The notes under the pieces were generated by a model. The model was not told the origin of the DNA. It was given only the letters and a program-made list of their open reading frames with translations, and searched no databases. 23,703 bases of DNA from a virus (lineage: Duplodnaviria > Heunggongvirae > Uroviricota > Caudoviricetes): IMG/VR virus record IMGVR_UViG_2585427753_000011, one strand, 5' to 3'. Position 1 is the first letter of the stretch, and each line of letters starts with the position of its first letter. This document shows positions 1,754 through 20,476 of the stretch, one piece after another. A program made the translations under genes and the position numbers.

Positions 1754-1755
1754 TT

Positions 1756-3010: not shown

Positions 3011-3012
3011 TA

Positions 3013-3509: not shown

Positions 3510-5778
3510 AGCCTCCGGGCGTTTTGTCCCTCCGTCAGCATTTGCCGCAGGCACCGGTAAGACGTTTACCGGTGCTTATGCATGGAACGCGCCACGCGAG
3601 GCCGTCGGGCGCGAAAGACCCCTTACACGTGACGAGATGCGTCAGGTGCAAGGTGTTTTATCCACGATTAACCGCCTGCCTTACTTTTTGCGTTCGCTGT
3701 TTACTTCACGCTATGACTACATCCGGCGCAATAAAAGCCCGGTGCACGGGTTTTATTTCCTCACATCCACTTTTCAGCGTCGTTTATGGCCGCGCATTGA
3801 GCGCGTGAATCAGCGCCATGAAATGAACACCGACGCGTCGTTACTGTTTCTGGCAGAGCGTGACCACTATGCGCGCCTGCCGGGAATGAATGACAAGGAG
3901 CTGAAAAAATTTGCCGCCCGTATCTCATCGCAGCTTTTCATGATGTATGAGGAACTCTGCGATGCCTGGGTGGATGCCCATGGCGAAAAAGAATCGCTGT
4001 TTACGGATGAGGCGCAGGCTCACCTGTATGGTCATGTTGCTGGCGCTGCACGTGCTTTCAATATTTCCCCGCTCTACTGGAAAAAATACCGTAAAGGACA
4101 GATGACCACGAGGCAGGCATATTCTGCCATTGCCCGCCTGTTTAACGATGAGTGGTGGACTCATCAGCTTAAAGGCCAGCGTATGCGCTGGCATGAGGCG
4201 TTACTGATTGCTGTCGGGGAGGTCAATAAAGACCGTTCTCCTTATGCCAGTAAACATGCCATTCGTGATGTGCGTGCACGCCGCCAGGCAAATCTGGAAT
4301 TTCTTAAATCGTGTGACCTTGAAAACAGGGAAACCGGCGAGCGCATCGACCTTATCAGTAAGGTGATGGGCAGTATTTCTAATCCTGAAATTCGCCGGAT
4401 GGAGCTGATGAACACCATTGCCGGTATTGAGCGTTACGCCGCAGCAGAGGGTGATGTGGGGATGTTTATCACGCTGACCGCGCCGTCAAAGTATCACCCG
4501 ACACGTCAGGTCGGAAAAGGCGAAAGTAAAACCGTCCAGCTAAATCACGGCTGGAACGATGAGGCATTTAATCCAAAGGATGCGCAGCGTTATCTCTGCC
4601 ATATCTGGAGCCTGATGCGCACGGCATTCAAGGATAATGATTTACAGGTCTACGGTTTGCGTGTCGTCGAGCCACACCACGACGGAACGCCGCACTGGCA
4701 TATGATGCTTTTTTGTAATCCACGCCAGCGTAACCAGATTATTGAAATCATGCGTCGCTATGCGCTCAAAGAGGATGGCGACGAAAGAGGAGCCGCGCGA
4801 AACCGTTTTCAGGCAAAACACCTTAACCGGGGCGGTGCTGCGGGATATATCGCGAAATACATCTCAAAAAACATCGACGGCTATGCACTGGATGGTCAGC
4901 TCGATAATGATACCGGTAGGCCGCTGAAAGACACAGCTGCGGCTGTTACCGCATGGGCGTCAACGTGGCGCATTCCGCAATTTAAAACGGTTGGTCTGCC
5001 GACAATGGGGGCTTACCGTGAACTACGCAAATTGCCTCGCGGCGTCAGCATTGCTGATGAGTTTGACGAGCGCGTCGAGGCTGCACGCGCCGCTGCAGAC
5101 AGTGGTGATTTTGCGTTGTATATCAGCGCGCAGGGCGGGGCAAATGTCCCGCGCGATTGTCAGACTGTCAGGGTCGCCCGTAGCCCGTCGGATGACGTTA
5201 ACGAGTACGAGGAAGAAGTCGAGAGAGTGGTCGGCATTTACGCGCCGCATCTCGGCGCGCGTCATATTCATATCACCAGAACGACGGACTGGCGCATTGT
5301 TCCGAAAGTGCCGGTCGTTGAGCCTTTGACTTTAAAAAGCGGCATCGCCGCGCCTCGGAGTCCTGTCAATAACTGTGGAAAGCTCACCGGTGGTGATACT
5401 TCGTTACCGGCTCCCACACCTTCTGAGCACGCCGCAGCAGTGCTTAATCTGGTTGATGACGGTGTTATTGAATGGAATGACCAGGAGGTCGTGAGGGCGC
5501 TCAGGGGCGCATTAAAACGAGGTCTGAGAAGACCAAACCGTCAGCAAAGAAACGGAAGCCCGTTAAAACAGCATGAAATGGCACCATCGGCCAGACTGAC
5601 CCGGTCAGAACGAATGCAAATTACCCGTATCCGCGTTGACCTTGCTCAGAACGGTATCAGGCCGCAGCGATGGGAGCTTGAGGCGCTGGCGCGTGGAGCA
5701 ATTGTAAATTACGACGGGAAAAAATTCACGTATCCAGTCGCTGATGAGTGGCGGGGATTCTCAGCAGTAATGGAGTGA
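3499..5778 (+). CDS. A: Replication initiation endonuclease A (rolling-circle HUH endonuclease)
   Basis: Track ORF 3457..5778; start set at ATG 3499 (MAVKASGRF...) by resemblance to the P2 gpA N-terminus and coupling to the upstream stop. Contains a histidine-rich HUH-type motif (HHDGTPHWHMMLF). Confidence 0.9.
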   Translation: MAVKASGRFVPPSAFAAGTGKTFTGAYAWNAPREAVGRERPLTRDEMRQVQGVLSTINRLPYFLRSLFTSRYDYIRRNKSPVHGFYFLTSTFQRRLWPRIERVNQRHEMNTDASLLFLAERDHYARLPGMNDKELKKFAARISSQLFMMYEELCDAWVDAHGEKESLFTDEAQAHLYGHVAGAARAFNISPLYWKKYRKGQMTTRQAYSAIARLFNDEWWTHQLKGQRMRWHEALLIAVGEVNKDRSPYASKHAIRDVRARRQANLEFLKSCDLENRETGERIDLISKVMGSISNPEIRRMELMNTIAGIERYAAAEGDVGMFITLTAPSKYHPTRQVGKGESKTVQLNHGWNDEAFNPKDAQRYLCHIWSLMRTAFKDNDLQVYGLRVVEPHHDGTPHWHMMLFCNPRQRNQIIEIMRRYALKEDGDERGAARNRFQAKHLNRGGAAGYIAKYISKNIDGYALDGQLDNDTGRPLKDTAAAVTAWASTWRIPQFKTVGLPTMGAYRELRKLPRGVSIADEFDERVEAARAAADSGDFALYISAQGGANVPRDCQTVRVARSPSDDVNEYEEEVERVVGIYAPHLGARHIHITRTTDWRIVPKVPVVEPLTLKSGIAAPRSPVNNCGKLTGGDTSLPAPTPSEHAAAVLNLVDDGVIEWNDQEVVRALRGALKRGLRRPNRQQRNGSPLKQHEMAPSARLTRSERMQITRIRVDLAQNGIRPQRWELEALARGAIVNYDGKKFTYPVADEWRGFSAVME

Positions 5779-6019
5779 ACGTCGCCCGTTGCGAAAATTA
5801 TTTACAGGGGGCAGCGTTAAGCATCTAAAGATCTTGTTCTATGATTAGAATGTTTCCTCGTTGCACTCTCGTATAGTTATTTAATGGGAAGATGTACTCT
5901 ATATGTTGTGTTTTGGTGATAAATGAAGCCAAAGGAAGGAGATTTTGCTTGATTGATGGGCGCTCTTTGCTATACACCTTGTATTGAGAAGGAGAAGTAA
6001 TCAAGGATTAAGCTGGCTT

Positions 6020-6073
6020 TTGTCAAAAATCTGAAAAGCTTTTTTGACTGAATACGATAGCGAGTTGTACTAT
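6020..6073 (+). promoter_or_regulatory. Candidate sigma70 promoter with overlapping inverted repeats upstream of the cargo membrane operon
   Basis: -35 TTGACT (6044-6049), 18-nt spacer, -10 TACTAT (6068-6073), ~35 nt upstream of ATG 6108. Inverted repeat GTCAAAAA (6022-6029) / TTTTTGAC (6041-6048) and palindrome AAAAGCTTTT (6034-6043) overlap the -35. Confidence 0.35.
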
Positions 6074-6107
6074 TTGCGCCCTCAAAAGTAACCGGCGGCT
6101 GGGTAAA

Positions 6108-6482
6108 ATGGGGAAGCAAGGCAAAGGCAAAGGCAACAAAAATCAGGTTAAGGTTACGTGGGCTCAGGCGTGGCGGGATGTAATGATAAGAGCCATGTCT
6201 AATGGTCAGTTGATACCTATTACCATCAGTATTATTTTAATGATTGCTGCATGGAGGTTACCAAAAACAGACTTGTCCAATTTAGCCTTCTCTATTGTTG
6301 ATGGCTTTAAGGAGCATTCCTTGGTTGGTTGGGCTATCTCGGTAATAGTGGGTTTGGCTTGGTCTGCACATGCGCGAATCATGAGGCGCTGTTTTAGTTC
6401 CGAGGCACAGAGAATCGGTAACGAGAAAACAAAGTATCAACAAAGACAGACCACTCAAGCCTTGGGTACAAGTGATAAATAG
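6108..6482 (+). CDS. Cargo gene 1: small two-transmembrane-helix protein with Lys/Gly-rich N-terminus
   Basis: 124-aa ORF; two hydrophobic segments (LIPITISIILMIAAW; LVGWAISVIVGLAWSAHA). Weak SD, so start is uncertain (alternative Met at 6183/6195). AT-rich relative to backbone. Confidence 0.6.
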   Translation: MGKQGKGKGNKNQVKVTWAQAWRDVMIRAMSNGQLIPITISIILMIAAWRLPKTDLSNLAFSIVDGFKEHSLVGWAISVIVGLAWSAHARIMRRCFSSEAQRIGNEKTKYQQRQTTQALGTSDK

Positions 6483-6502
6483 TTGTTTATTTAGGAGTTA
6501 TT

Positions 6503-7060
6503 ATGCTGACAGTGCTGTTTTATGTGCTGTTGGGTTTAGGCGCAGCACACTTCATTTACGAGCGAATCATTTTGCCGTCCATCCGACTTCATTATAGAAA
6601 CCAATTGTTTGCGCTTCGTGATGTCGCTAGGAGGAAAATCATTGATGGAGGTTCCGATACTTCCATGCAAGCGGCAACACTTGTGCATGACTCATTGAAT
6701 AACGCTATCAATAGATTGCATTTACTCACGTTGCCAAACAAATTTCGTGCTCAAAAGCGTATGGCAGAAAACCATGCAATAAGGCAGAAAATTCGGCGTG
6801 AGATAGATGTTTTCAAACGCTGTGATGATAGAGAAGTTGTTGATGTACTGTTTAAATCCGGTCGGATACTTGAAAATGTACTGTTATTCAATAGCTTAAT
6901 GTTATTGCTTTACATGTTTCCATTTGTCCTTGCTGTATGGTTCTGTGTTAGGGTCATAAAGACAGCAAGTAGTTTAGTACAGTGGGTCAAAGGAAGAGAT
7001 TTAGAGGAAGCTATAATGCTGCTTCCTGATACTCAGGTTGAAAAGGTTGTATACGCATAA
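6503..7060 (+). CDS. Cargo gene 2: membrane protein with N- and C-terminal hydrophobic helices
   Basis: 185-aa ORF with strong SD (AGGAG ~5 nt upstream); hydrophobic N-terminus (LTVLFYVLLGLGAAHFIY) and C-terminal segment (LLFNSLMLLLYMFPFVLAVWFCV) around a charged helical region; 20 nt after gene 1. Confidence 0.7.
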   Translation: MLTVLFYVLLGLGAAHFIYERIILPSIRLHYRNQLFALRDVARRKIIDGGSDTSMQAATLVHDSLNNAINRLHLLTLPNKFRAQKRMAENHAIRQKIRREIDVFKRCDDREVVDVLFKSGRILENVLLFNSLMLLLYMFPFVLAVWFCVRVIKTASSLVQWVKGRDLEEAIMLLPDTQVEKVVYA

Positions 7061-7088
7061 AAATCACCCCTTAGGGGGTGATTTTTTT
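7061..7088 (+). terminator. Rho-independent terminator ending the two-gene membrane operon
   Basis: Stem ATCACCCC (7063-7070) / GGGGTGAT (7075-7082), loop TTAG, followed by a T-run; immediately after the stop at 7060. Confidence 0.8.
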
Positions 7089-7299
7089 ACATGACTTTTG
7101 ATTAGCTGACATTGTAAATCCGCATGTATCAGATGCATTGTTTTGCATGTGGAAATGGGTGTTTTCACTGCCAGCTATCGCTACATGTAGCAAAAACACG
7201 GGCTTAATAAGAAATCATTCTGCCATAAGGCATAACTTCCCCGCGTGCTCAGGTATTGACGTCATAGATATGGATCTTTTTTAATCAAGGTATGGTATT

Positions 7300-8247
7300 A
7301 TGAAGATATTTATTAGTTGGTCAGGTCAGGACAGCCTGGAGATAGCAAAAGTATTACGGGATTGGATACCGAATGTTATTCAAGTAGCTGAGCCGTACGT
7401 ATCAGCGGAAGATATTGATAAAGGCACTCGCTGGGCGACTGATATATCAAAGGAACTTGATGACTCTTCTTATGGGATTATTTGCCTTACAAAAAATAAT
7501 ATTAATGCACCGTGGATAAATTTTGAGGCGGGTGCTTTAGGTAAAAAGGTTGATAAGAGCCGGGTTAGTCCTTTCTTGTTTAAAATTAAACCATCTGAGA
7601 TAACAGGCCCAATATTACAATTCCAGTATACTCGTTCGGATGATAAGAACGATATTTTGAAGTTGATGTTGTCAATAAATAATCAAGCAGGATTTTTGAC
7701 TGAAGAACGCTTAACTAAAGCTTTCGAGCAATGGTGGCCAAGTTTAGAGCGTGAGTTAGATAACATTCAAGATATTAACCCTGTAGATAAAGATTCCACT
7801 AAAAAAACAAAAGGTGATTCGACTTCTGAGATACAAAATCTTTCCAAAATTGTTGAAAGTTTGCTGGATATTAGCCGAACAAATCACCAATTATTGCGTG
7901 ATCCAGCATCATTATTGCCAGAAGAATATGTTAGCAAAATAATAAACAGGGAAGGGCGTAAAGAAACTGTTTTAAAAATTGTAGCTTCTGATTTATTATC
8001 CATGCATCATTCACTAATTCGTGTAAAAAGAAGATTTATTCGTCGTGGTATTGATGAAACATCTAGGAGCGAGTTAATTGAATCATTAAATAAAATGATA
8101 ATGGATTGTTCTAGAGTAATCGCTCACTTAGATAATTATTGTGGGGCTTCATCAAACAATATGTTCAATAGTGCGCTTAGATTGCGGACCAGAAATTTAA
8201 TTGACATGATGGATGAGGAGGATGCAGAACGGGATGAAATGGAATAA
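7300..8247 (+). CDS. Cargo gene 3: TIR-domain protein with uncharacterised C-terminal helical domain
   Basis: 315 aa. N-terminal ~130 aa has TIR hallmarks: KIFISWSGQDS first strand, GIICLT strand, and W-x-x-F-E-A-G motif (WINFEAGAL) aligning by eye with the catalytic-Glu region of bacterial TIR NADases. C-terminal ~170 aa has no motif I recognise. Own transcription unit. Confidence 0.75.
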   Translation: MKIFISWSGQDSLEIAKVLRDWIPNVIQVAEPYVSAEDIDKGTRWATDISKELDDSSYGIICLTKNNINAPWINFEAGALGKKVDKSRVSPFLFKIKPSEITGPILQFQYTRSDDKNDILKLMLSINNQAGFLTEERLTKAFEQWWPSLERELDNIQDINPVDKDSTKKTKGDSTSEIQNLSKIVESLLDISRTNHQLLRDPASLLPEEYVSKIINREGRKETVLKIVASDLLSMHHSLIRVKRRFIRRGIDETSRSELIESLNKMIMDCSRVIAHLDNYCGASSNNMFNSALRLRTRNLIDMMDEEDAERDEME

Positions 8248-8321: not shown

Positions 8322-8791
8322 TATATCGCTTATAATGGGTATGTTATTTTTATTTTGATAAAATCATTAAAATTGTCGATGTTATATGAATGCACATGTA
8401 TTATTAATGTTAGAAGATTATGCCTGCTTACGGCTATTGTGCTGAATTCAACTATGAACGCATCAGTATTAAAATCGTTCCATGAAATGTTCTTCGTCTA
8501 CAGCAGATGATGGGCAACGAAAAAATGACGCTGAGTGAGTTGGTCGGGGAGAATTGTTAGAGGTATTTATGGAGTGGTTTAATAATATCGGTCAATCCTG
8601 AGTTGCAGCATCACATAGACGATAGGGAATCTCTCCAGTCGTTCTGGAATGGCAGCGTTGAACAACAAGCACAGCGAGGCGTTAGATGCCCATCAGATTG
8701 ACACAGAGGGTTTATGAATCGCTGGGATTTACTTAGTTTGAAAAATAATATATTTATATGTTTTTGTATTGTGTTTGTTAAGGAGTTTGGA

Positions 8792-8998
8792 TTGAAAAGA
8801 AAACTGATTTGTGTTATGGCTTTTTGGGGGGCGTTGCTGGCTGGTTGTAATGAGAGTAATAAAAAAGAAGTTGAGGGTTGTATTGAAAGAGGTGTCCAAT
8901 ATTTTATAGAGATTGGTTCTTACCCTAAATTAAGTGATGGGCGTGATGCTGTAAAAGTTGCTACTGAACGTTGTAATAGAACAATAACGGCTTTCTGA
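8792..8998 (+). CDS. Cargo gene 4: small predicted lipoprotein (lipobox LLAGC)
   Basis: Track ORF 8714..8998 has an improbable N-terminus. An in-frame TTG at 8792 follows AGGAG (8781-8785, 6-nt spacer) and gives (M)KRKLICVMAFWGALLAG-C: a basic n-region, hydrophobic core and lipobox Cys. Mature protein ~49 aa. Confidence 0.6.
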   Translation: MKRKLICVMAFWGALLAGCNESNKKEVEGCIERGVQYFIEIGSYPKLSDGRDAVKVATERCNRTITAF

Positions 8999-9000
8999 TA

Positions 9001-9918
9001 ATGGATTATACGAGCTATATAATAGGACAGCTTCAGGTTGAGGATATTATTGATGCAATTAAAGGCGTTAATAATACTAATGTCATAAAAGATTATGTGC
9101 TGCCTGTAGTATTACCAATTATATCTTCTGTGCTGAGTTACTTTATTGCAACTAGGTTGTTTTATCGGCAGGAGGACCTTAAAGCACAAAGAAGAAAGGT
9201 AAGCGTTGTAAATAAATGTATTTATGACTACTTTTCTGCAATGACAACGTTGTTGCAAATTAAAGGGAATTATTATGGTGGGGTAAGTATAAGTGAAAAT
9301 CCTATCGAGAGGGCTTTAGCTTTTCCTGTTGTGGTTTTTTCTGGTGCTCCTCTATCATCAGATTTAAGTGAGTTGGCCTGTATATTGAGTCAAAAGGGAG
9401 TAGGGAATAATAGAGAGCCAGCAAAGACTACTAACTGGGGGGATGCTTTTGCTGTTAGTGATATAGCAAGAAGGTTTAACAGCCTATTGGCTGCATTAAA
9501 TGTTAGGAATGATTTTGATGACACCTATAGAGGAATGATTATTGAATCAACAGGTTCACCTTTGCCTACGATGCGTTTTAAAAATGATGATATTGTTAAT
9601 GCTATAGGTAGTAATAAGGCAGCTTATTACATTGATATTACTGAGCAAATAATGATTATGATAGATGTTTTGTTGCTTGATATTAATCTGTTGCTCAAAG
9701 AGTTGCCATTGTATGCTGAATCGCTGTTTGACAAAAGAGTAATGCAAGAAGATTCAGGGATTCTTAAATTCAATGATTTGCACGAACGTTTTCCTCTACT
9801 TATGAAACCTGTAACGCCACCTTCGATTAAACTCATGTCTGATTATTTGGGGTACAGTGAAGATGAGATCTTACGACGCTATCCATACCCGTTCTTTAAT
9901 ATGCATGATTGTGAATGA
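9001..9918 (+). CDS. Cargo gene 5: 305-aa protein with one N-terminal transmembrane helix, no recognisable domain
   Basis: Starts 2 nt after the lipoprotein stop (translational coupling). Hydrophobic segment VLPVVLPIISSVLSYFIATRLF near the N-terminus; AT-rich codon usage. Confidence 0.7.
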   Translation: MDYTSYIIGQLQVEDIIDAIKGVNNTNVIKDYVLPVVLPIISSVLSYFIATRLFYRQEDLKAQRRKVSVVNKCIYDYFSAMTTLLQIKGNYYGGVSISENPIERALAFPVVVFSGAPLSSDLSELACILSQKGVGNNREPAKTTNWGDAFAVSDIARRFNSLLAALNVRNDFDDTYRGMIIESTGSPLPTMRFKNDDIVNAIGSNKAAYYIDITEQIMIMIDVLLLDINLLLKELPLYAESLFDKRVMQEDSGILKFNDLHERFPLLMKPVTPPSIKLMSDYLGYSEDEILRRYPYPFFNMHDCE

Positions 9919-10021: not shown

Positions 10022-10040
10022 GGGCGAGGCGGGGAAAGCA
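10022..10040. other. Probable cos cohesive-end site
   Basis: GGCGAGGCGGGGAAAGCAC at 10022-10040 matches the P2 19-nt cohesive end as I recall it; in a GC-rich non-coding stretch just upstream of portal Q, where cos lies in P2. Confidence 0.6.
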
Positions 10041-10170
10041 CTGCGCGCTGGCGGTGGTGATGATTGTCTGAGCGCGTCGTGATGGCGTTTAGATTGTGCG
10101 CCGGGGCGTTGGTGTGTCTGCGGGGTGTTTTGTACAGTGGCGAGCGTGTGAGGGCGTGATGACGGGGGTG

Positions 10171-10193
10171 TAAAAAAGCCGCCCGCAGGCGGC
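10171..10193 (-). terminator. Rho-independent terminator of the leftward P-Q operon
   Basis: On the minus strand: stem GCCGCC / GGCGGC with 4-nt loop, followed by a T-run (A-run 10172-10177 on plus strand); directly after the Q stop at 10199-10201. Confidence 0.7.
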
Positions 10194-10198
10194 GATGT

Positions 10199-11233
10199 TC
10201 AGCCGTTGTCAGTGTCCAGTGAGTAGTTTTTAAAGCGGATGACCTCCTGACCGAGCCAGCCGTTTATTTCCCGAATCCTGTCCTGTAACGGGATAAGTTC
10301 ATTGCGGACAAAGACCTTTGCCACTTTCTCAATATCGCCCAGCGACCCGACGTTTTCCGGCTTGCCACCCATCAACTGAAAGGGGATGCGGTGCGCGTCC
10401 AGCAGGTCAGCGGCGCTGGCTTTTTTGATATTAAAAAAATCGTCCTTCGTGGCCACTTCACTGAGCGGGATAATTTTAATGCCGTCGGCTTTTCCCTGTG
10501 GGGCATAGAGAAACAGGTTTTTAAAGTTATTGCGGCCTTTCGACTTCACCATGTTTTCGCGGAGCATTTCGATATCGTTGCGATCCTGCACGGCATCAGT
10601 GACGTACATGATGTATCCGGCATGTGCGCCGTTTTCGTAATACTTGCGGCGGAACAGCGTGGCCGACTCATTCAGCCAGGCAGAGTTAAGGGCGCTGAGA
10701 TATTCCGGCAGACCGTACAGCTCCTGATTAATATCCGGCTCCAGCAGGTGAAACACGGAGCCGGGCGCGAAAGGTGTCGGCTCGTTGAAGGACGGCACCC
10801 ACCAGTAAACATCCTCCTCCACGCCACGGCGGGGATATTTTGCCGGGGAGGGTTCCAGTCTGATGACCTTACCGGTGGTGCTGTAACGCTTTTCCAGAAA
10901 CGCATTACCGAATACCAGAAAATCCAGCACAAAGCGGCTGAAATCCTGCTGAGAAAGCCACGGGTGTGGGATAAACGTTGAGGCCAGAATGTTACGTTTG
11001 ACGTAAATCGGTGAGCTGTGATGCACGGCAGCACGCAGGCTTTTTGCCAGACCGGTAAAGCTGACTGGTGGCTCATACCATCTGCCGTTACTGATGCACT
11101 CGACGTAATCCAGAATGTCACGGCGGTCGAGTACCGGCACCGGCTCACCAAAGGTGAATGCCTCCATTTTCGGGGCGCTGGCGGTCATTTTTTTTGCCGC
11201 AGGTTGCGGTGTTTTCCCTTTTTTCTTGCTCAT
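10199..11233 (-). CDS. Q: Portal protein Q
   Basis: 344 aa, same length as P2 gpQ and recognisable sequence (MSKKKGKTPQPAAKK...); adjacent to cos. Confidence 0.9.
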   Translation of the reverse strand: MSKKKGKTPQPAAKKMTASAPKMEAFTFGEPVPVLDRRDILDYVECISNGRWYEPPVSFTGLAKSLRAAVHHSSPIYVKRNILASTFIPHPWLSQQDFSRFVLDFLVFGNAFLEKRYSTTGKVIRLEPSPAKYPRRGVEEDVYWWVPSFNEPTPFAPGSVFHLLEPDINQELYGLPEYLSALNSAWLNESATLFRRKYYENGAHAGYIMYVTDAVQDRNDIEMLRENMVKSKGRNNFKNLFLYAPQGKADGIKIIPLSEVATKDDFFNIKKASAADLLDAHRIPFQLMGGKPENVGSLGDIEKVAKVFVRNELIPLQDRIREINGWLGQEVIRFKNYSLDTDNG

Positions 11234-11979
11234 CAGTAAAACTCCAGAATGGTGGATGTCAGCGGGGTGCTGATACCGGCGGTGAGTGGCTCATTTAACA
11301 GGGCGTGCATGGTCGCCCAGGCGAGGTCGGCGTGGCTGGCTTCCTCGCTACGGCTGGCCTCATAGGTGGCGCTGCGTCCGCTGCTGGTCATGGTCTTGCG
11401 GATAGCCATGAACGAGCTGGTGATGTCGGTGGCGCTGCGTCCGCTGCTGGTCATGGTCTTGCGGATAGCCATGAACGAGCTGGTGATGTCGGTGGCGCTG
11501 CGTCCGCTGCTGGTCATGGTCTTGCGGATAGCCATGAACGAGCTGGTGATGTCGGTGGCGCTGCGTCCGCTGCTGGTCATGGTCTTGCGGATAGCCATGA
11601 ACGAGCTGGTGATGTCGGTGGCGCTGCGTCCGCTGCTGGTCATGGTCTTGCGGATAGCCATGAACGAGCTGGTGATGTCGGTGGCGCTGACGTCATATTC
11701 CAGACAGCCACGGCGGATGACGTCTTTTGCCTTGAGCACCATTGCGGTTTTCATTTCCGGCGTGTAGCGGATATCGCGTGCGGCGGGATAGAACGAGCGC
11801 ACGAGCTGGAACACGCCGACACCGAGGCCGGTGGCATCAATTCCGATGTATTCGACGTTGTATTTTTCGGTGAGTTTGCGGATGGATTCCGCCTGAGTGG
11901 CAAAGTCCATGCCTTTCCACTGGTGACGCTCAAGTATTCTGAATTTACCTCCGGCCACCACCGGCGGTGCCAGCACCAC
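11233..11979 (-). pseudogene. P: Terminase large subunit P, C-terminal remnant with internal tandem-repeat expansion
   Basis: 248-aa frame that opens at GTG with no upstream gene context. Reads as the C-terminal part of P2 terminase ATPase/nuclease, plus four extra 21-aa repeat copies. N-terminal ~400 aa absent; upstream sequence runs straight into endolysin K. Confidence 0.8.
11368..11682. repeat. Perfect 63-bp tandem repeat, 5 copies, in-frame within the terminase remnant
   Basis: GGCGCTGCGT recurs at 11368, 11431, 11494, 11557, 11620, then partially at 11683; on the minus strand this encodes SATDITSSFMAIRKTMTSSGR x5. Copies are identical by eye. Confidence 0.9.
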
Positions 11980-11995
11980 GCATCCGGCGCTGGCC

Positions 11996-12439
11996 GTGTC
12001 CGAAGGGACGGCGAATCATCCGCTGACGAAAAACCGGGGCTATGACGTGATAGTCACCGGACTGGACGGAAAGCCGGAAATTTTCACCGACTACAGTGAC
12101 CACCCGTTCGCACATGGTCGACCGGCGAAGGTGTTTAACCGTCGCGGTGAAAAATCCACGGCCTCCGGTCGCTATCAGCAGCTTTACCTGTTCTGGCCGC
12201 ATTACCGCAAACAGCTTGCCCTGCCGGATTTCAGTCCGTTGTCACAGGACAGGCTCGCCATTCAGTTGATCCGCGAACGCGGTGCACTGGATGACATCCG
12301 GGCGGGACGCATTGAGCGCGCCATTTCACGCTGTCGCAATATCTGGGCGTCCCTGCCGGGTGCCGGTTACGGTCAGCGTGAGCATCCACTGGAAAAACTG
12401 GTCACCGTCTGGCGTACCGCCGGCGGCGTACCGGCTTAA
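11996..12439 (+). pseudogene. K: Endolysin K, N-terminally truncated
   Basis: Frame reads SEGTANHPLTKNRGYDVIVTGLDGKPEIF... to ...TAGGVPA, which I recognise as P2 lysozyme K lacking roughly its first 18 residues. No holin Y upstream; the frame opens at a GTG at the deletion junction. Confidence 0.75.
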
Positions 12440-12453
12440 ACGGAGTAAACACC

Positions 12454-12879
12454 ATGAAGAAATTATCCCTTTCACTGATGCTGAATGTGCCGCTGGCGCT
12501 GATGCTGGCACTGTCCCTGATTTACCCGCAGAGCGTGGCCGTCAGTTTTGTCGCCGCCTGGGCGATTCTGGCGACGGTTATCTGTGTGGTTGCCGGTGGT
12601 GTCGGCGTGTATGCCACTGAGTATGTGCTGGAACGCTACGGGCGGGAGCTGCCGCCGGAATCGCTGGCCGTGAAGATTGTCACGTCGCTGTTTTTGCAGC
12701 CGGTGCCGTGGCGCAGACGGGCAGTAGCTCTGGTGGTGATGGTGGCGACGTTTATCTCGCTGGTCGCTGCCGGGTGGATTTTTACCGCGCTGATTTATCT
12801 TGTGGCGTCGCTGTTTTTCCGGCTGATACGTAAAGCCTGCCGTCAGCGTTTTGAGGGGCGGGAACCATGTCAAAGCTGA
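12454..12879 (+). CDS. lysA: Lysis accessory membrane protein LysA
   Basis: 141 aa, multi-TM, same size and position as P2 LysA. Confidence 0.85.
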   Translation: MKKLSLSLMLNVPLALMLALSLIYPQSVAVSFVAAWAILATVICVVAGGVGVYATEYVLERYGRELPPESLAVKIVTSLFLQPVPWRRRAVALVVMVATFISLVAAGWIFTALIYLVASLFFRLIRKACRQRFEGREPCQS

Positions 12880-13292
12880 TGATTGTGCTGGTTGTGCTGT
12901 TATCGCTGGCGGTGGCGGGGCTGTTTCTGGTGAAGCATGAAAACGCCAGCCTGCGCGCCTCGCTGGACAGGGCGAACAACGTCGCCAGTGAACAGCAGAC
13001 GACCATCACCATGCTGCAAAATCAGCTTCATGTTGCCATCACCAGGGCAGACAAAAACGAGCTGGCGCAGGTGGCACTGCGTCAGGAACTGGAGAACGCC
13101 GCGAAGCGTGAAGCACAGCGCGAGAAAACCATCACGAGGTTACTTAATGAAAACGAAGATTTTCGCCGCTGGTATGGCGCTGACCTGCCTGATGCTGTGC
13201 GCCGGTTGCACCAGCGCCCCGCCTGCACCGACGCCAGTGATTGTCGCCAACGCCTGCCCGAAAGTGAGCCTTTGCCCGATGCCGGGCAGTGA
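12867..13292 (+). CDS. lysB: LysB (Rz-like inner-membrane spanin)
   Basis: 141 aa with N-terminal TM helix and coiled-coil region; P2 LysB size and position. Confidence 0.85.
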   Translation: MSKLMIVLVVLLSLAVAGLFLVKHENASLRASLDRANNVASEQQTTITMLQNQLHVAITRADKNELAQVALRQELENAAKREAQREKTITRLLNENEDFRRWYGADLPDAVRRLHQRPACTDASDCRQRLPESEPLPDAGQ

Positions 13293-13437
13293 CCCGGAGA
13301 CGAACGGCGATTTAAGTGCCGATATCCGGCAGCTTGAGAACGCGCTGGCACGTTGTGCCAGCCAGGTAAAAATGATTAAACACTGTCAGGACGAAAACGA
13401 TGCTCAAACCCGACAGCCTGCGCAGGGCGCTGACTGA
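13147..13437 (+). CDS. lysC: LysC (Rz1-like outer-membrane lipoprotein spanin), out of frame across the lysB 3' end
   Basis: Track ORF 12937..13437; real start is ATG 13147 (MKTKIFAAGMALTCLMLCAG-C, lipobox), giving 96 aa as in P2 LysC; Pro-rich mature region. Confidence 0.8.
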   Translation: MKTKIFAAGMALTCLMLCAGCTSAPPAPTPVIVANACPKVSLCPMPGSDPETNGDLSADIRQLENALARCASQVKMIKHCQDENDAQTRQPAQGAD

Positions 13438-13867
13438 TGCCGTCACGGTGCTGAAAACTAACCCCGATATGCTGCGGATATTCGTGGATAACGGGAGTAT
13501 TGCCTCCACACTGGCGGCGTCGTTGTCATTCGAAAAGCGTTACACGCTCAATGTCATTGTGACCGACTTTACCGGTGATTTTGACCTGCTCATCGTGCCG
13601 GTGCTGGCGTGGCTGCGGGAAAATCAGCCCGACATCATGACCACCGACGAAGGCCAGAAAAAGGGCTTCACGTTTTATGCAGACATCAACAATGACAGCA
13701 GCTTTGATATCAGTATCAGCCTGATGCTGACCGAGCGCACGCTGGTCAGTGAGGTTGACGGTGCGCTGCATGTGAAGAATATCCCGGAACCTCCGCCGCC
13801 GGAGCCAGTCAATCGCCCGATGGAGCTTTATATCAATGGTGAACTGGTGAGCAAGTGGGATGAATGA
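13400..13867 (+). CDS. R: Tail completion protein R
   Basis: 155 aa, P2 gpR length and position. Confidence 0.85.
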   Translation: MLKPDSLRRALTDAVTVLKTNPDMLRIFVDNGSIASTLAASLSFEKRYTLNVIVTDFTGDFDLLIVPVLAWLRENQPDIMTTDEGQKKGFTFYADINNDSSFDISISLMLTERTLVSEVDGALHVKNIPEPPPPEPVNRPMELYINGELVSKWDE

Positions 13868-14312
13868 GTTTAAGCGTTTTGAAGACCGACTGACCGGACT
13901 GATTGAATCGCTGTCACCGTCTGGGCGTCGGCGACTGAGTGCAGAACTGGCGAAACGTCTGCGGCAGAGTCAGCAGCGTCGGGTGATGGCACAGAAAGCT
14001 CCGGACGGCACACCCTACGCACCACGCCAGCAGCAGAGCGCCAGAAAAAAGACCGGTCGCGTTAAGCGAAAAATGTTTGCGAAACTTATCACCAGTCGTT
14101 TTTTGCATATCCGCGCCAGCCCTGAACAGGCATCAATGGAGTTTTACGGCGGGAAGTCACCGAAAATCGCCAGTGTGCATCAGTTCGGTCTGTCGGAAGA
14201 AACCCGGAAAGACGGTAAGAAAATTGATTATCCGGCGCGTCCTCTGCTCGGCTTTACCGGTGAGGATGTGCAGATGATTGAAGAGATTATCCTGGCTCAC
14301 CTTGAGCGTTAG
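13860..14312 (+). CDS. S: Tail completion protein S
   Basis: 150 aa, P2 gpS length and position. Confidence 0.85.
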   Translation: MNEFKRFEDRLTGLIESLSPSGRRRLSAELAKRLRQSQQRRVMAQKAPDGTPYAPRQQQSARKKTGRVKRKMFAKLITSRFLHIRASPEQASMEFYGGKSPKIASVHQFGLSEETRKDGKKIDYPARPLLGFTGEDVQMIEEIILAHLER

Positions 14313-14342
14313 TTTTATCCAGACAGAGGCTGATGCGCAATT

Positions 14343-14377
14343 AAACATTGAGCGGCCATGCTGGTCGCTCAATGTTT
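14343..14377. terminator. Bidirectional terminator hairpin between convergent S and the orf30-position gene
   Basis: 12-bp stem AAACATTGAGCG (14343-14354) / CGCTCAATGTTT (14366-14377), 11-nt loop; between stop codons at 14310-14312 (+) and 14384-14386 (-). Confidence 0.6.
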
Positions 14378-14383
14378 AGAGGT

Positions 14384-15169
14384 TTATGAGTGATTTTTAT
14401 TTGATGCTTTGTATTCTAAAACCTTCTTATTGGCGTAAAAGAATTTTGTATATGACAGGAATATAACCAGACCTGAAGTGAAATAGACGAGGGATAGTAT
14501 TAATAATGCTTTTTTGCGACTGTTATTATCTTTAATCTCCAGGCTTAACCATTCGGAGTCCTCCTCGTTTAGCTGTAAGAGCTTATTGCAGGCGATTTCA
14601 GGAAGTGTGTCTTTTATAAATACGTTTTGCAGTCTCTTGCAATCGGCAAGGCTATAAGTTTTATTAAATTCAACTGCTTTATTTTTGAAGGATAAAAGAA
14701 CTTTGTCACTATAAACATAGTACATCATGTTTTTATATGGTATGCCTATGGCATCCCTTACTATAACGGATTGTTCGTTGTGTATGTAACATGCGAGGAG
14801 AATGTAAAAAATACTGGCCAGAATTACAATTATTGTTTTAATTATGTGTGGTGGTTTTGTTATGTCACCCCAGATGCGAGTAAGGAAAAAATACGATGTT
14901 TTTAGTTTTCCATCAATCAGTCCCTGCTGTATCATTCTCACATTTTCAATGCCTGATACATTGATTCCGTTAATTATTTTAAATAGTTGAATGTCGCGCC
15001 ACTCGCGGTCAAGTCTTTTTAATTTTTTGTCTGAATATCCAAAATTGAAATAATGTGCAATAAGCCTCATAAGGTTACTTTTACCAAAGCTAAAAAATGC
15101 TAATACTGCAAAGCTACAAAGGAAAAAAACGATTAGCCCCCACACATTAGTCACATTATAGCTGACCAT
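14384..15169 (-). CDS. AT-rich moron at the P2 orf30 position: membrane protein with ~3 TM helices, unknown function
   Basis: 261-aa ORF antisense to the late operons between S and V; hydrophobic segments near aa 9-28, 111-131 and 228-247; Lys/Asn/Ile/Phe-rich. Confidence 0.7.
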   Translation of the reverse strand: MVSYNVTNVWGLIVFFLCSFAVLAFFSFGKSNLMRLIAHYFNFGYSDKKLKRLDREWRDIQLFKIINGINVSGIENVRMIQQGLIDGKLKTSYFFLTRIWGDITKPPHIIKTIIVILASIFYILLACYIHNEQSVIVRDAIGIPYKNMMYYVYSDKVLLSFKNKAVEFNKTYSLADCKRLQNVFIKDTLPEIACNKLLQLNEEDSEWLSLEIKDNNSRKKALLILSLVYFTSGLVIFLSYTKFFYANKKVLEYKASNKNHS

Positions 15170-15252
15170 TACGCTCTCCTTGAATGTTGTCTGGTAGTTC
15201 TACAAATGAATCCAGATAGCATAACTTTTATATATTGTGCAATCTCACATGC

Positions 15253-15888
15253 ATGAACACTCTCGCAAATATTCAGGAACTCGCGCGCGCACTGCGCAAC
15301 ATGATTCGCACCGGCATTATCGTCGAAACCGACCTTAACGCCGGTCGCTGCCGCGTGCAGACCGGCGGCATGTGCACCGACTGGCTTCAGTGGCTGACCC
15401 ATCGCGCCGGTCGTTCGCGCACATGGTGGGCACCTTCCGTGGGGGAACAGGTGCTGATTCTGTCCGTGGGCGGTGAACTCGACACGGCGTTTGTTCTGCC
15501 GGGGATTTATTCCGGCGATAATCCCGCGCCGTCTGCGTCGGCGGATGCCCTGCATATCCGTTTCCCTGACGGGGCGGTGATTGAGTATGAACCCGAAACC
15601 AGTGCGCTCACGGTAAGCGGAATTAAAACGGCCAGCGTGACGGCTTCCGGTTCTGTTACTGCCACTGTGCCGGTGGTCATGGTGAAAGCGTCAACCCGCA
15701 TCACCCTGGACACACCGGAGGTGGTCTGCACCAACAGGCTGATTACCGGCACGCTGGAAGTGCAGAAGGGCGGGACGATGCGCGGCAACATTGAACACAC
15801 CGGCGGTGAACTCTCATCAAACGGTAAGGTACTGCATACCCATAAACACCCCGGCGACAGCGGCGGCACAACCGGGAGTCCTCTATGA
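15253..15888 (+). CDS. V: Baseplate spike protein V
   Basis: Track ORF 15235..15888; start set at ATG 15253 (MNTLANIQELARA...) to give the 211-aa P2 gpV; stop overlaps W start. Confidence 0.9.
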   Translation: MNTLANIQELARALRNMIRTGIIVETDLNAGRCRVQTGGMCTDWLQWLTHRAGRSRTWWAPSVGEQVLILSVGGELDTAFVLPGIYSGDNPAPSASADALHIRFPDGAVIEYEPETSALTVSGIKTASVTASGSVTATVPVVMVKASTRITLDTPEVVCTNRLITGTLEVQKGGTMRGNIEHTGGELSSNGKVLHTHKHPGDSGGTTGSPL

Positions 15889-16232
15889 CAGCGCGTTATC
15901 TCGGAATGAATCGCAGTGATGGCCTGACGGTCACTGACCTTGAGCATATCAGCCAGAGTATCGGCGATATCCTGCGCACACCGGTCGGCTCACGGGTGAT
16001 GCGCCGTGATTACGGCTCGTTGCTGGCGTCAATGATTGACCAGCCGCAGACCCCGGCGCTTGAGTTGCAGATTAAGGTCGCCTGTTACATGGCGGTGCTG
16101 AAATGGGAACCCCGCGTCACCCTGTCATCCGTCACCACGGCGCGCAGTTTTGACGGGCGAATGACGGTCACGTTAACCGGTCAGCACAACGACACCGGTC
16201 AGCCACTTTCGTTAACCATCCCTGTGAGTTGA
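15885..16232 (+). CDS. W: Baseplate wedge protein W
   Basis: 115 aa, P2 gpW length and position. Confidence 0.9.
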   Translation: MTARYLGMNRSDGLTVTDLEHISQSIGDILRTPVGSRVMRRDYGSLLASMIDQPQTPALELQIKVACYMAVLKWEPRVTLSSVTTARSFDGRMTVTLTGQHNDTGQPLSLTIPVS

Positions 16233-16236
16233 AACC

Positions 16237-17145
16237 ATGCCGATTATCGACCTGAACCAGCTACCCGCACCGGATGTGGTCGAGGAGCTGGACTTTGAAA
16301 CCATTCTTGCCGAACGCAAGGCGACACTGATTTCCCTTTACCCGGAAGACCAGCAGGAGGTGGTCGCCCGTACCCTGACGCTGGAATCGGAGCCTCTCGT
16401 CAAACTGCTGGAAGAAAATGCTTATCGTGAGCTTATCTGGCGTCAGCGTGTGAATGAGGCCGCACGGGCGGTGATGCTGGCCTGTGCCGCCGGTAATGAC
16501 CTTGATGTGATTGGTGCCAATTACAACACCACACGCCTGATTATCATCCCGGCAGATGATTCGACCATCCCGCCGACACCGGCAGTGATGGAATCTGACA
16601 CCGATTATCGTCTGCGTATTCAGCAGGCGTTTGAAGGTTTAAGCGTTGCCGGGTCGGTGGGAGCCTATCAGTATCATGGTCGCAGTGCCGACGGGCGTGT
16701 CGCGGATATCTCTGTCACCAGTCCGTCTCCGGCCTGTGTCACTATCTCCGTGCTGTCCCGAGAAAATAACGGTGTCGCATCCGAAGACCTGCTGGCTGTG
16801 GTGCGTAACGCTCTTAATGGCGAGGACGTCAGGCCGGTGGCTGACCGTGTGACCGTGCAGTCTGCCGCCATTGTTGAATACCAGATAAACGCCACGCTGT
16901 ATCTTTACCCTGGTCCAGAAAGCGAACCCATCCGCGCCGCCGCCGTGAAAAAACTGGAAGCGTACATCACGGCACAGCACCGGCTGGGGCGCGACATCCG
17001 TCTGTCTGCCATTTATGCCGCTTTGCATGTGGAAGGCGTGCAGCGTGTCGAACTGACTGCACCGCTGGCTGACATCGTGCTCAACAGTACGCAGGCGTCT
17101 TTCTGCACCGAATACAGCGTCGTGACCGGAGGCTCGGATGAGTGA
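16237..17145 (+). CDS. J: Baseplate protein J
   Basis: 302 aa, P2 gpJ length and position. Confidence 0.9.
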   Translation: MPIIDLNQLPAPDVVEELDFETILAERKATLISLYPEDQQEVVARTLTLESEPLVKLLEENAYRELIWRQRVNEAARAVMLACAAGNDLDVIGANYNTTRLIIIPADDSTIPPTPAVMESDTDYRLRIQQAFEGLSVAGSVGAYQYHGRSADGRVADISVTSPSPACVTISVLSRENNGVASEDLLAVVRNALNGEDVRPVADRVTVQSAAIVEYQINATLYLYPGPESEPIRAAAVKKLEAYITAQHRLGRDIRLSAIYAALHVEGVQRVELTAPLADIVLNSTQASFCTEYSVVTGGSDE

Positions 17146-17668
17146 TTCGCGACTGCTGCCGACCGGCTCATCACCGCTTGAGGTCGCCGCCGCAAAAGCC
17201 TGTGCGGAAATTGAAAAAACACCGGTCAGTATTCGTGAGCTGTGGAACCCGGACTCCTGTCCGGCAAATCTGCTGCCGTGGCTGGCGTGGGCGTTTTCGG
17301 TCGACAGGTGGGATGAAAAGTGGCCGGAAGCGACAAAACGCGCCGTTATCCGCGATGCCTATTTCATCCACTGTCATAAAGGCACTATCGGCGCAATCCG
17401 ACGCGTGGTGGAGCCGCTCGGCTATCTCATCAACGTGACGGAGTGGTGGGAAAACAGTGACCCGCCCGGCACCTTCCGGCTTGATATTGGTGTACTGGAA
17501 AGCGGTATCACAGAGGCAATGTATCAGGAAATGGAACGGCTGATTGCCGATGCCAAACCTGCAAGCCGCCACCTTATTGGCCTGAACATTACCCGGGACA
17601 TTCCCGGCTATCTGTTCGCCGGTGGTGTGGCTTACGACGGCGATGTAATTACGGTTTACCCCGGATAA
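17138..17668 (+). CDS. I: Baseplate protein I
   Basis: 176 aa, P2 gpI length and position; overlaps J end. Confidence 0.9.
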   Translation: MSDSRLLPTGSSPLEVAAAKACAEIEKTPVSIRELWNPDSCPANLLPWLAWAFSVDRWDEKWPEATKRAVIRDAYFIHCHKGTIGAIRRVVEPLGYLINVTEWWENSDPPGTFRLDIGVLESGITEAMYQEMERLIADAKPASRHLIGLNITRDIPGYLFAGGVAYDGDVITVYPG

Positions 17669-17678
17669 GTGAGGAATA

Positions 17679-19724
17679 ATGAGCATAAAATTCAGAACCG
17701 TTATCACCACTGCCGGTGCAGCAAAGCTGGCAGCGGCAACCGCGCCGGGAGGGCGGAAGGTCAACATTACCACGATGGCCGTCGGGGATGGCGGTGGTAA
17801 ATTGCCTGTCCCGGATGCCGGACAGACCGGGCTTATCCATGAAGTCTGGCGACATGCGCTGAACAAAATCAGCCAGGACAAACGAAACAGTAATTATATT
17901 ATCGCCGAGCTGGTTATTCCGCCGGAGGTGGGCGGTTTCTGGATGCGTGAGCTTGGCCTGTACGATGATGCGGGAACATTAATTGCCGTGGCGAACATGG
18001 CCGAAAGTTATAAGCCAGCTCTTGCCGAAGGCTCAGGGCGTTCGCAGACCTGTCGCATGGTCATCATCGTCAGCAGTGTGGCCTCAGTGGAGCTGACCAT
18101 TGACACCACAACGGTGATGGCGACTCAGGATTACGTTGATGACAAAATTGCAGAGCATGAACAGTCACGACGTCACCAGGACGCCTCGCTGACCGCAAAA
18201 GGTTTTACTCAGTTAAGCAATGCGACCAACAGCACGTCTGAAACACTGGCCGCAACGCCGAAAGCGGTTAAGGCCGCATATGACCTTGCTAACGGGAAAT
18301 ATACCGCACAGGACGCTACCACAGCGCGAAAAGGTCTTGTCCAGCTAAGTAGTGCGACCAACAGCATATCTGAAACGCTCGCCGCAACACCAAAAGCCGT
18401 TAAGACGGTAATGGATGAAACGAACAAGAAAGCGCCATTAAACAGCCCTGCACTGACCGGAACGCCAACGACGCCAACTGCGCGACAGGGAACGAATAAT
18501 ACTCAGATCGCAAACACGGCTTTCGTTATGGCCGCGATTGCCGCCCTTGTAGACTCGTCGCCTGACGCACTGAATACGCTGAACGAGCTGGCGGCGGCGC
18601 TGGGCAATGACCCGAATTTTGCTACCACCATGACTAATGCGCTTGCGGGTAAGCAACCGAAAGATGCCACTTTGACGGCGCTGGCGGGGCTTGCTACTGC
18701 GGCAGACAGGTTTCCGTATTTTACGGGGAATGATGTTGCCAGCCTGGCGACCCTGACAAAAGTCGGGCGGGATATTCTGGCTAAATCGACCGTTGCCGCT
18801 GTTATCGAATATCTCGGTTTACAGGAAACGGTAAACCGAGCCGGGAACGCCGTGCAAAAAAATGGCGATACTTTGTCCGGCGGGCTTACTTTTGAAAACG
18901 ACTCAATCCTTGCCTGGATTCGAAATACTGACTGGGCGAAGATTGGATTTAAAAATGATGCCGATGGTGACACTGATTCATATATGTGGTTTGAAACAGG
19001 TGACAACGGCAATGAATATTTCAAATGGAGAAGTCGCCAGAGCACCACAACAAAAGACCTGATGAATCTTAAATGGGATGCTCTGTATGTTCTTGTTAAA
19101 GCCCTTTTCAGCAGTGAAGTAAAAATATCTACAGTCAATGCACTGAGGATATTTAATTCATCTTTTGGGGCTATTTTTCGCCGTTCTGAAGAAAACCTGT
19201 ATATCATTCCTACACGAGAAAATGAGGGTGAAAATGGAGATATTGGGCCATTAAGGCCATTCGGCATCAACTTAAGAACAGGAGTTGTGTCTGTTGGTAA
19301 TGGTGCCAGGATTGATGGCGGGCTGGCACTTGGCACGAATAACGCGTTGGGTGGGAACTCTATTGTTCTTGGTGATAACGACACCGGATTTAAACAAAAT
19401 GGCGATGGTAATCTGGATGTTTATGCTAATAACGTCCATGTTATGCGCTTTGTTTCCGGAAGCATTCAAAGTAATAAGACCATAAATATTACGGGGCGTG
19501 TTAATCCCTCGGATTACGGTAACTTTGATTCCCGCTATGTGAGAGATATCAGACTTGGCACACGTGTTGTCCAGACCATGCAGAAAGGGGTGATGTATGA
19601 GAAAGCAGGGCACGTAATTACCGGGCTTGGTATTGTCGGTGAAGTCGATGGTGATGACCCCGCAGTATTCAGGCCAATACAAAAATACATCAATGGCACA
19701 TGGTATAACGTCGCACAGGTGTAA
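17679..19724 (+). CDS. H: Tail fiber protein H
   Basis: 681 aa; conserved N-terminal tail-fiber region, internal repeated motif (...SETLAATPKAVK... twice), divergent C-terminal receptor-binding part. Confidence 0.9.
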   Translation: MSIKFRTVITTAGAAKLAAATAPGGRKVNITTMAVGDGGGKLPVPDAGQTGLIHEVWRHALNKISQDKRNSNYIIAELVIPPEVGGFWMRELGLYDDAGTLIAVANMAESYKPALAEGSGRSQTCRMVIIVSSVASVELTIDTTTVMATQDYVDDKIAEHEQSRRHQDASLTAKGFTQLSNATNSTSETLAATPKAVKAAYDLANGKYTAQDATTARKGLVQLSSATNSISETLAATPKAVKTVMDETNKKAPLNSPALTGTPTTPTARQGTNNTQIANTAFVMAAIAALVDSSPDALNTLNELAAALGNDPNFATTMTNALAGKQPKDATLTALAGLATAADRFPYFTGNDVASLATLTKVGRDILAKSTVAAVIEYLGLQETVNRAGNAVQKNGDTLSGGLTFENDSILAWIRNTDWAKIGFKNDADGDTDSYMWFETGDNGNEYFKWRSRQSTTTKDLMNLKWDALYVLVKALFSSEVKISTVNALRIFNSSFGAIFRRSEENLYIIPTRENEGENGDIGPLRPFGINLRTGVVSVGNGARIDGGLALGTNNALGGNSIVLGDNDTGFKQNGDGNLDVYANNVHVMRFVSGSIQSNKTINITGRVNPSDYGNFDSRYVRDIRLGTRVVQTMQKGVMYEKAGHVITGLGIVGEVDGDDPAVFRPIQKYINGTWYNVAQV

Positions 19725-19727
19725 TTT

Positions 19728-20255: not shown

Positions 20256-20476
20256 GTTGTATAAGCTCTGGTGTGAGATTACATATCTATGGCACAGAGT
20301 AAAGCCTAATCTGACAGGCCGCTCTGTGTCTGGAGTAGATTTTAGTAAAGCATTATTTTATTAGTGCAAATTCTAATCAATACATTTTATGTATATGATA
20401 TCCTACGGACTTTAATGACTTGGTTTAGGCTAACCAGATAACACTGAAGGAATATTTTTGATAATTAAGGTGCGGT

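Follow-up and report, generated by a model that had tools for sequence, protein, structure and literature searches.

A probable short-homology deletion of 5.3 kb joins truncated terminase and endolysin genes in a defective P2-like prophage beside fieF of Escherichia coli

Defective P2-type remnants are familiar in Escherichia coli, among them the ogrK-yegZ remnant of K-12 and, in E. coli B, a defective prophage related to P2. Compared with the K-12 remnant, the prophage described here is much younger and larger, carries two large deletions only with no point-mutational decay detected, and still has a near-identical intact parent in circulation. Defective P2 elements whose defence genes are nearly identical to those of intact phages have been reported (bioRxiv 10.64898/2026.02.27.708500), and our locus resembles them in its internal deletions, its vertical inheritance and its intact defence cargo. 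It joins that class as an unusually fresh example.

For the joining process itself, the closest described system is aberrant excision of phage lambda, scored in the Spi- assay; two reports (PMC11372144, PMC3375238) describe short-homology illegitimate recombination in E. coli. The joint analysed here is like the lambda Spi- short-homology deletions in having 4-bp direct repeats of which one is kept, with no filler DNA. The two systems differ in that the lambda events come with genetic requirements, namely RecA independence and suppression by RecQ and SSB, whereas the present case is a natural scar only.

The window, by which we mean the whole 23,703-nucleotide (23.7-kb) stretch of DNA that was analysed, holds a P2-type prophage with 95-97% identity to P2 (NC_001895) over most shared genes in nucleotide alignment, and lower identity in the int-C-cox region and at the fibre end. 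Collinear nucleotide homology in the early, late and cos regions places it in the P2-like (Peduovirus) class. The gene order begins with int (1-1011, minus strand), C, cox, B and A, followed by a cargo block at 5.8-10.0 kb, the cos site, Q and a piece of P; after these come a piece of K, then lysA, lysB, lysC, R, S and orf30, then V, W, J, I, H, G and a conversion gene at the Z/fun locus, and finally a stub of FI fused to the end of D, ogr and the host gene fieF. The retained prophage DNA amounts to about 22.7 kb, and the kept genes include int, C, cox, B, A, ogr and the baseplate and fibre genes. Relative to P2, the window lacks P2 positions 1729-7047 and 17757-23194, carries different old/tin and Z/fun cargo, and has a different int/att specificity, directed at fieF.

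Window positions 22600-23703 are 99.9% identical to the E. coli fieF region, and this last 1.1 kb was found in all 5,426 of the complete E. coli genomes searched. Given that identity, the host is to be read as E. coli, with the prophage inserted just upstream of fieF. The features around the first joint are as follows.

10023-10041, no strand: cos site, a 19-nt cohesive-end sequence identical to P2 (alignment).
10199-11233, minus strand: portal gene Q, full length (344 aa), whose promoter pP was in the deleted block.
11233-11992, minus strand: remnant of P (terminase large subunit), Ser423-Tyr590, 168 codons plus 84 extra from a tandem array.
11989-11992, no strand: deletion junction 1, GCTG, where P2 1725-1728 (gene P) is joined to P2 7044-7047 (gene K), read from the alignment overlap.
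11989-12439, plus strand: K', a 5'-truncated endolysin (lambda-R-type lysozyme) that has lost codons 1-16, ribosome-binding site and promoter.
12454-14312, plus strand: lysA, lysB, lysC, R and S, full length with sizes as in the intact relative; promoter pO and the activator-binding site are deleted.

The first-pass annotation, made from the letters of the sequence, had placed a deletion junction at 11960-12000, where a minus-strand remnant of P would be fused to a plus-strand, 5'-truncated K with the N-terminal part of P and genes O, N, M, L, X and Y, about 5 kb in all, missing in between. Alignment to P2 bears this out: the breakpoint at 11989-11992 lies inside that interval, the frames of P' and K' align in the proposed orientation, and the missing block measures 5.3 kb and comprises exactly those genes. 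Two boundaries had to be moved, by about a dozen bases at most. P had been thought to end at about 11979, which is the first in-frame GTG of the remnant open reading frame (ORF); P homology is indeed present there but reaches 11992. K had been read from about 11996, at roughly residue 19, and the GTG of Val19 does stand at that position, but K homology begins at 11989 and Leu17 is its first whole codon.

The breakpoint was mapped by junction alignments against P2, against the prophage of strain M21816 and against the closest intact relative, on contig JANPXH010000003.1 of assembly GCA_024706755.1, which was identified through exact-protein look-ups. Window positions 10023-11992 align to P2 1-1728 and positions 11989-19103 to P2 7044-14158, so that the two alignments overlap by four bases (GCTG, 11989-11992) and leave no unaligned base and no filler DNA. 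The alignment switches from P to K at these four bases, which lie between 11980 and 11996. The lost span corresponds to P2 1729-7047 and measures 5,319 bp when counted on P2 or M21816, against 5,321 bp on GCA_024706755.1; it contained P residues 1-422 with the ATPase domain, the promoters pP and pO, genes O, N, M, L, X and Y, and K codons 1-16. The cuts fall inside the reading frames of the two genes, P being kept from Ser423 and K from Leu17.

GCA_024706755.1, P2 and M21816 all have GCTG at both endpoints, in P codons 422-423 and K codons 16-17, as direct repeats about 5.3 kb apart, and a single copy is retained in the window. The microhomology that the first-pass annotation proposed to look for is thus present at 4 bp, and the joint has the three marks of a short-homology event: a direct repeat at both endpoints, one copy in the product and no filler. 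Among 200,000 random deletions simulated on the parental sequence of GCA_024706755.1, 1.9% had a microhomology of at least 4 bp.

The intact relative is nearly identical to the window on either side of the joint, with 376 of 376 bases matching to the left of junction 1 and 8,890 of 8,891 to the right (100% and 99.99%). Between these flanks it carries P (590 aa, with Terminase_5, 6N and 6C domains), O, N, M, L, X, Y and K (165 aa); its genes from FI to D are intact as well, and the prophage lies in the same ogr-fieF-pfkA context as that of the window. The bacterium that carries it appears to be Escherichia marmotae, as its FieF and PfkA proteins are exact matches to those named E. marmotae and its fieF-pfkA region has at most 90.1% DNA identity to any of the 5,426 E. 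coli genomes. The cargo block of the window recurs at 99.4-99.9% identity in 14 complete E. coli genomes. Two of these, M21816 and strain 0-4, were inspected, and both have the full P-O-N-M-L-X-Y-K region, the M21816 prophage at the same ogr-fieF site and that of strain 0-4 at a different one. An IS1 element is present in the related prophage of strain 0-4. Strain YJR also has P beside K, but through a different rearrangement with other breakpoints.

These relatives bear on the direction of the change. The window could instead represent a natively head-less, P2-derived element, a satellite or defence island, from which the intact relatives arose by gaining genes; it keeps int, cox, the replication genes, cos and ogr, and the contigs read hold far more copies of the short form than of the long one. 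That history is extremely unlikely in our estimation. P (at Ser423) and K (at Leu17) are cut inside their reading frames and keep neither a promoter nor a ribosome-binding site nor a start codon. P2 itself and about 1,600 E. coli genomes are collinear with the long form, which is near-identical to the short form on both sides. Wherever a flank can be seen, the copy lies at fieF, and the contigs, of about 150 kb, agree in their flanks, in keeping with vertical inheritance. The 5.3-kb block, moreover, shows neither the foreign composition nor the flanking repeats of an inserted segment. The truncation of the boundary genes and the common fieF site also led us to reject a phage satellite of the P4 or PICI kind, and an R-type tailocin was rejected because FI, FII, E, T, U and the holin gene Y are deleted and K is truncated.

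Since an intact prophage with near-identical flanks occupies the same site in E. marmotae, the lineage does not natively lack the missing genes, and the undeleted prophage that the first-pass annotation suggested seeking in related strains is found at the same chromosomal site in both M21816 and GCA_024706755.1. The short form is the derived one. The remnant is only a few SNPs from its intact relative and the lengths of the retained neighbours are unchanged, which suggests an evolutionarily recent loss, in line with the recent deletion that had been proposed.

Alignment to P2 revealed a second joint, which the first-pass annotation had not reported.

21501-21504, no strand: deletion junction 2, where FI codon 35 is joined out of frame to D codon 135 (alignment).
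21400-22264, plus strand: FI' and D', with 35 codons of FI and a stop after two more, and a D-frame ORF at 21404-22264.

Here the lost span, P2 17757-23194, measures 5,438 bp and takes in FI from codon 36, FII, E/E', T, U and codons 1-134 of D. The prophage is therefore more crippled than had been stated, its sheath, tube and tape-measure genes being gone. The endpoints share AGC (3 bp), or TAGC if the parent had a synonymous GCT allele; the T of the window matches the right-hand parent one base beyond the shared AGC, and the GCT allele is present in two viral contigs. With 3 bp of certain homology and this stray T, the two events together do not establish a strict rule of microhomology. No single-deletion intermediate was found, each contig that covers both sites carrying both scars. 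The two deletions are independent events that have been passed on together in the clone.

Inspection of the alignments gave no common sequence motif and no Chi site at the two joints, and the junction alignments contain no insertion sequence, target-site duplication, inverted repeat, longer homology or non-P2 base at either of them. This matters for a dedicated recombination process, such as a deletion adjacent to an IS element or transposon, the action of a site-specific recombinase, or homologous recombination between longer repeats. The similar sizes of the two deletions and the IS1 in strain 0-4 could be taken to favour such a process, but each pair of endpoints shares so little sequence (4 bp and 3 bp), and the joints are so unrelated (GCTG as against AGC, which speaks against a common recombinase site), that together with the clean joints we consider it very unlikely.

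Our preferred reading, to which we assign a probability of about 0.92, is that junction 1 represents the scar of a single 5.3-kb deletion of short-homology origin in a P2-like prophage resident beside fieF in an E. coli clone. The two GCTG direct repeats in the parental P and K genes would have recombined, with the loss of one copy and of all intervening DNA, by a RecA-independent short-homology (illegitimate) pathway, either through replication slippage (slipped mispairing) between the repeats or through microhomology-guided joining of a break. A second deletion of 5.4 kb would have removed FI to D independently. RecA-independent short-homology illegitimate recombination is the best-supported mechanism, its anatomy coming from the alignments and its pathway being read back from the scar. 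Four base pairs are few, with about 2% of random joins having as much by chance, and the scar cannot tell slippage from break joining or reveal RecA independence.

The exact 24-mer that spans junction 1 occurs in 7 further loci, and continuous alignment over the junction was obtained in 5 more. The sources are NCBI isolate assemblies, Logan assemblies of separate runs and gut-metagenome scaffolds from ENA, with 99.8-100% overall identity. The exact 147-aa ORF of K' (start 11996) is found on 41 contigs and an exact 163-aa ORF of P' on 69. We read 24 NCBI contigs that carry an exact copy of a 197-aa neighbouring protein: one, from E. marmotae, is intact, three inspected contexts are deleted, and the remaining 20 were grouped as similar to those three. 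Wherever the flank is visible, the copies lie at fieF with matching host flanks, on contigs of roughly 130-153 kb, and copies within the clone differ by 0-7 SNPs per approximately 10 kb. One metagenome copy has a further deletion of 123 bp in lysA/lysB and possibly further decay in A.

Recovery of junction 1 from other data depended entirely on exact-protein look-up of the K' ORF. Exact searches with a 36-mer and the 24-mer gave no match in GTDB species-representative genomes or JGI metagenomes, and megablast with a 601-bp probe of the junction showed the joint in none of the RefSeq complete E. coli genomes, on which ground the defective P2 prophage of E. coli B was dropped as a candidate source. 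The megablast result, and the fact that the exact form of the window, with an array of 5.2 copies, occurs in no other data set, are what might be expected if the joint were a mis-join or a collapsed region in one assembly. The identical junction in independent NCBI, Logan and ENA assemblies leaves that explanation with next to no probability, and an overlap of 4 bp would in any case seem too short for an assembler to mis-join. The deletion is thus not private to the genome from which the window came. The shared fieF site and matching flanks point to a single clone, with dozens of public assemblies, in which the scar is fixed and has been inherited vertically.

The consequences for the genes at the joint can be read from what remains of them. 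The longest ORF of the P remnant (11233-11979, 248 aa, GTG start) lacks the ATPase and N-terminal domains and gives only a partial match to the Pfam Terminase_6C family. K' starts at the third base of codon 16, and its sole remaining in-frame start is the GTG of Val19 at 11996, while the Glu21 codon is kept (GAA, 12001-12003). The Pfam search of K' gave no match; its family was assigned through lambda lysozyme structures 3d3d and 1am7, to which K is related at E = 4e-44 and in which Glu21 lies opposite the Glu of the lambda WSEGT motif. Glu21 is presumably the catalytic residue, the equivalent of Glu19 of lambda R. Any K product begun at Val19 would be predicted to lack the first helix.

The first-pass annotation had described the flanking genes as intact. 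This holds for Q, lysA, lysB, lysC, R and S, whose lengths match those of the intact relative, but not for the P remnant, which has four extra copies of a 63-bp unit. Expression is a separate matter. The transcription starts of P and O and their shared activator-binding site lie at P2 3016-3127, within the lost interval, and no sigma-70-like promoter was found near junction 1. Both Q-P' and K'-lysA-lysB-lysC-R-S have, by these coordinates, lost their own late promoters, and because the divergent, Ogr-dependent pP and pO are deleted, late-programme expression of these flanking genes is probably gone.

On the P2 map, O encodes the scaffold, N the major capsid protein, M the small terminase, L the head-completion protein, X a tail protein, Y the holin and K the endolysin. 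The absence of O, N, M, L, Y and the ATPase domain of P agrees with the earlier statement that the prophage can make no capsids and has no holin. With the terminase ATPase domain, scaffold, capsid protein, small terminase and head-completion protein all absent, heads would be neither made nor filled, and the gene map predicts that the prophage cannot make heads, package DNA or lyse the cell. The locus is, on this gene content, a defective derivative of a P2-like prophage that would yield no viable phage, as essential morphogenesis and lysis genes are gone. The missing functions could be supplied in trans by a further P2-like prophage, should the source genome have one.

The P remnant has undergone a further change that sets the window apart from its relatives.

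11365-11694, no strand: tandem array of a 63-bp unit, 5.2 identical copies, in frame (21 aa), found with TRF.

The array adds four extra copies of the unit relative to single-copy relatives; a single unit is present in P2, in the intact relatives and in every other deleted copy compared, and the array was seen only in this window. The single-copy ancestor has the 63-bp unit flanked by a 10-bp direct repeat, GGTGGCGCTG, and the segment between these repeats would have expanded to five copies after the deletion, in a P gene that was already dead. No match to the unit-unit junction turned up in IMG/VR, JGI metagenomes or RefSeq complete E. coli genomes, and neither the exact 248-aa P' ORF nor the 286-aa D' ORF of the window was in the protein collection searched. 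Apparent full-coverage (100%) matches to a repeat probe proved to be three BLAST pieces stacked on one 78-bp stretch, with no duplication. The array is best taken as a very recent expansion in the source of the window; an assembly error is less likely.

The cargo of the prophage has stayed intact, and lies in the old/tin hotspot.

6108-8247, plus strand: TIR defence cargo of three genes, assigned by PADLOC as 2TM-TIR, 1TM-TIR and TIR-TM.

The PADLOC E-values are 2e-58 (2TM-TIR), 3e-75 (1TM-TIR) and 2e-118 (TIR-TM), with a match to Pfam TIR_2. The cargo replaces P2 30312-33546, and two ORFs downstream of it have no family match in PADLOC or Pfam. Our literature search for "2TM-1TM-TIR" found nothing under that term.

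The combination of lost and kept genes raises the possibility of adaptive domestication, in which, as opposed to neutral decay, the deletions became fixed for what they bring: an end to lysis and virion production, with repressor immunity and the TIR cargo preserved. In its favour, the prophage has lost its lethal and late functions but still has full-length copies of int, C, cox, B and A, of the three TIR genes and of the Z/fun conversion gene; the predominance of the deleted form among the contigs read is in keeping with such selection, as are the defective P2 elements with conserved defence genes already reported (bioRxiv 10.64898/2026.02.27.708500). Against this, the clone is so young, judging from the few SNPs between its copies, that selection need not be invoked for the intact ORFs, the now useless genes for baseplate and fibres are just as intact, and the metagenome copy mentioned above is decaying further in lysA/lysB and possibly in A. 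Domestication is consequently a possibility that we regard as rather doubtful, although persistence through selection for immunity or defence is plausible.

Even less likely, and something of a long shot, is that the element of about 22.7 kb, with int, cox, C, B, A, ori, cos and ogr, acts as a helper-dependent, P2-derived satellite or defence island. If it did, a co-infecting intact relative, for example the near-identical phage of E. marmotae, would excise, replicate and package the remnant and so spread the TIR cargo. One contig from a Hadza metagenome has junction 2 joined to a different tail-fibre/invertase module. This contig may hint at exchange, with chimeric assembly as the alternative; were the element mobilized by a helper, the contig would represent genetic exchange after the deletion rather than a chimera.

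Decay by illegitimate recombination remains the reading that we prefer, and it is ordinary prophage decay of a well-documented kind, with nothing in it that goes against current understanding. For annotation, it means that P' and K' are pseudogenes, that the public calls of a 147-149-aa "lysozyme" and a 163-aa "terminase-like" protein or "oxidoreductase" are deletion artefacts, and that the locus should be labelled a defective P2-like prophage. For the biology of these phages, it offers a clean natural case of early prophage decay, in which the intact parent is found in a sister species and the TIR cargo has been kept. Such pairs of parent and remnant can help to date prophage inactivation and to test whether defence cargo drives the retention of prophage remnants.

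Besides the junction that joins the remnant of terminase gene P to endolysin K, the defective P2-like prophage carries a second deletion, cargo genes and a repeat array. The features are located as follows.

Features of the prophage, in window coordinates
6108-8247, three-gene TIR anti-phage system at the P2 old/tin hotspot (PADLOC models 2TM-TIR, 1TM-TIR and TIR-TM)
8714-9918, two more cargo ORFs of 94 and 305 aa, between the TIR system and cos
11365-11694, 63-bp tandem array of 5.2 identical copies, in frame, within the dead P gene
20477-21070, 197-aa ORF at the second cargo hotspot, replacing fun(Z) of P2
21400-22264, FI/D fusion region, with the junction at 21501-21504

The second deletion removed 5,438 bp and connects FI codon 35 to D codon 135 out of frame, with loss of the sheath, the tube, E/E', the tape measure and U, along with the beginning of D. 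Every contig that spans both sites carries the P/K and FI/D junctions together. The FI/D junction is also present in a Hadza gut metagenome contig (ERZ4561533), which upstream of it has a different tail-fibre C-terminus and a resolvase/invertase gene. Exchange of modules subsequent to the deletion may explain this arrangement, as may a chimeric contig.

The 63-bp unit in the P remnant occurs once in P2, in the intact relatives and in every other copy of this deleted prophage, and its expansion is seen only in the source of the window. In the ancestral state, the single unit is flanked by a 10-bp direct repeat, GGTGGCGCTG. A copy of the deleted prophage from one metagenome (ENA ERZ28566128 scaffold) has an extra deletion of ~123 bp in lysA/lysB, at about 8790-8810 of that scaffold, between 19-bp direct repeats, and the ORF calls split its A gene in two. 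This could represent ongoing decay or a metagenome assembly error.

An unrelated P2-like prophage in E. coli YJR (NZ_CM146016.1, 5629-7271) exhibits a rearrangement of its own, in which a P remnant adjoins a full K gene, with an inverted and truncated tail-sheath gene after it; its breakpoints are not the same as those in the window. Several 'complete' E. coli chromosome records (L004, H83, H87 and H90) have their base 1 at the start of the P2 replication gene A, and the prophage is therefore cut in two by the record origin. Apparently, rotation software mistook this gene of the prophage for the start of the chromosome.

The TIR cargo block is also found in 14 complete E. coli genomes at 99.4-99.9% identity. 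The adjacent 94- and 305-aa ORFs gave no match in Pfam or PADLOC; they may constitute another accessory module, as yet uncharacterised. Neither Pfam nor PADLOC matched the 197-aa ORF at the fun(Z) hotspot, which RefSeq labels 'lysogenic conversion protein'.

An Escherichia marmotae genome (GCA_024706755.1, JANPXH010000003.1) carries, at its homologous ogr-fieF site, a prophage that is undeleted at both sites and essentially identical to the remnant. The presence of this near-identical intact prophage there implies that the phage moved recently between Escherichia species.
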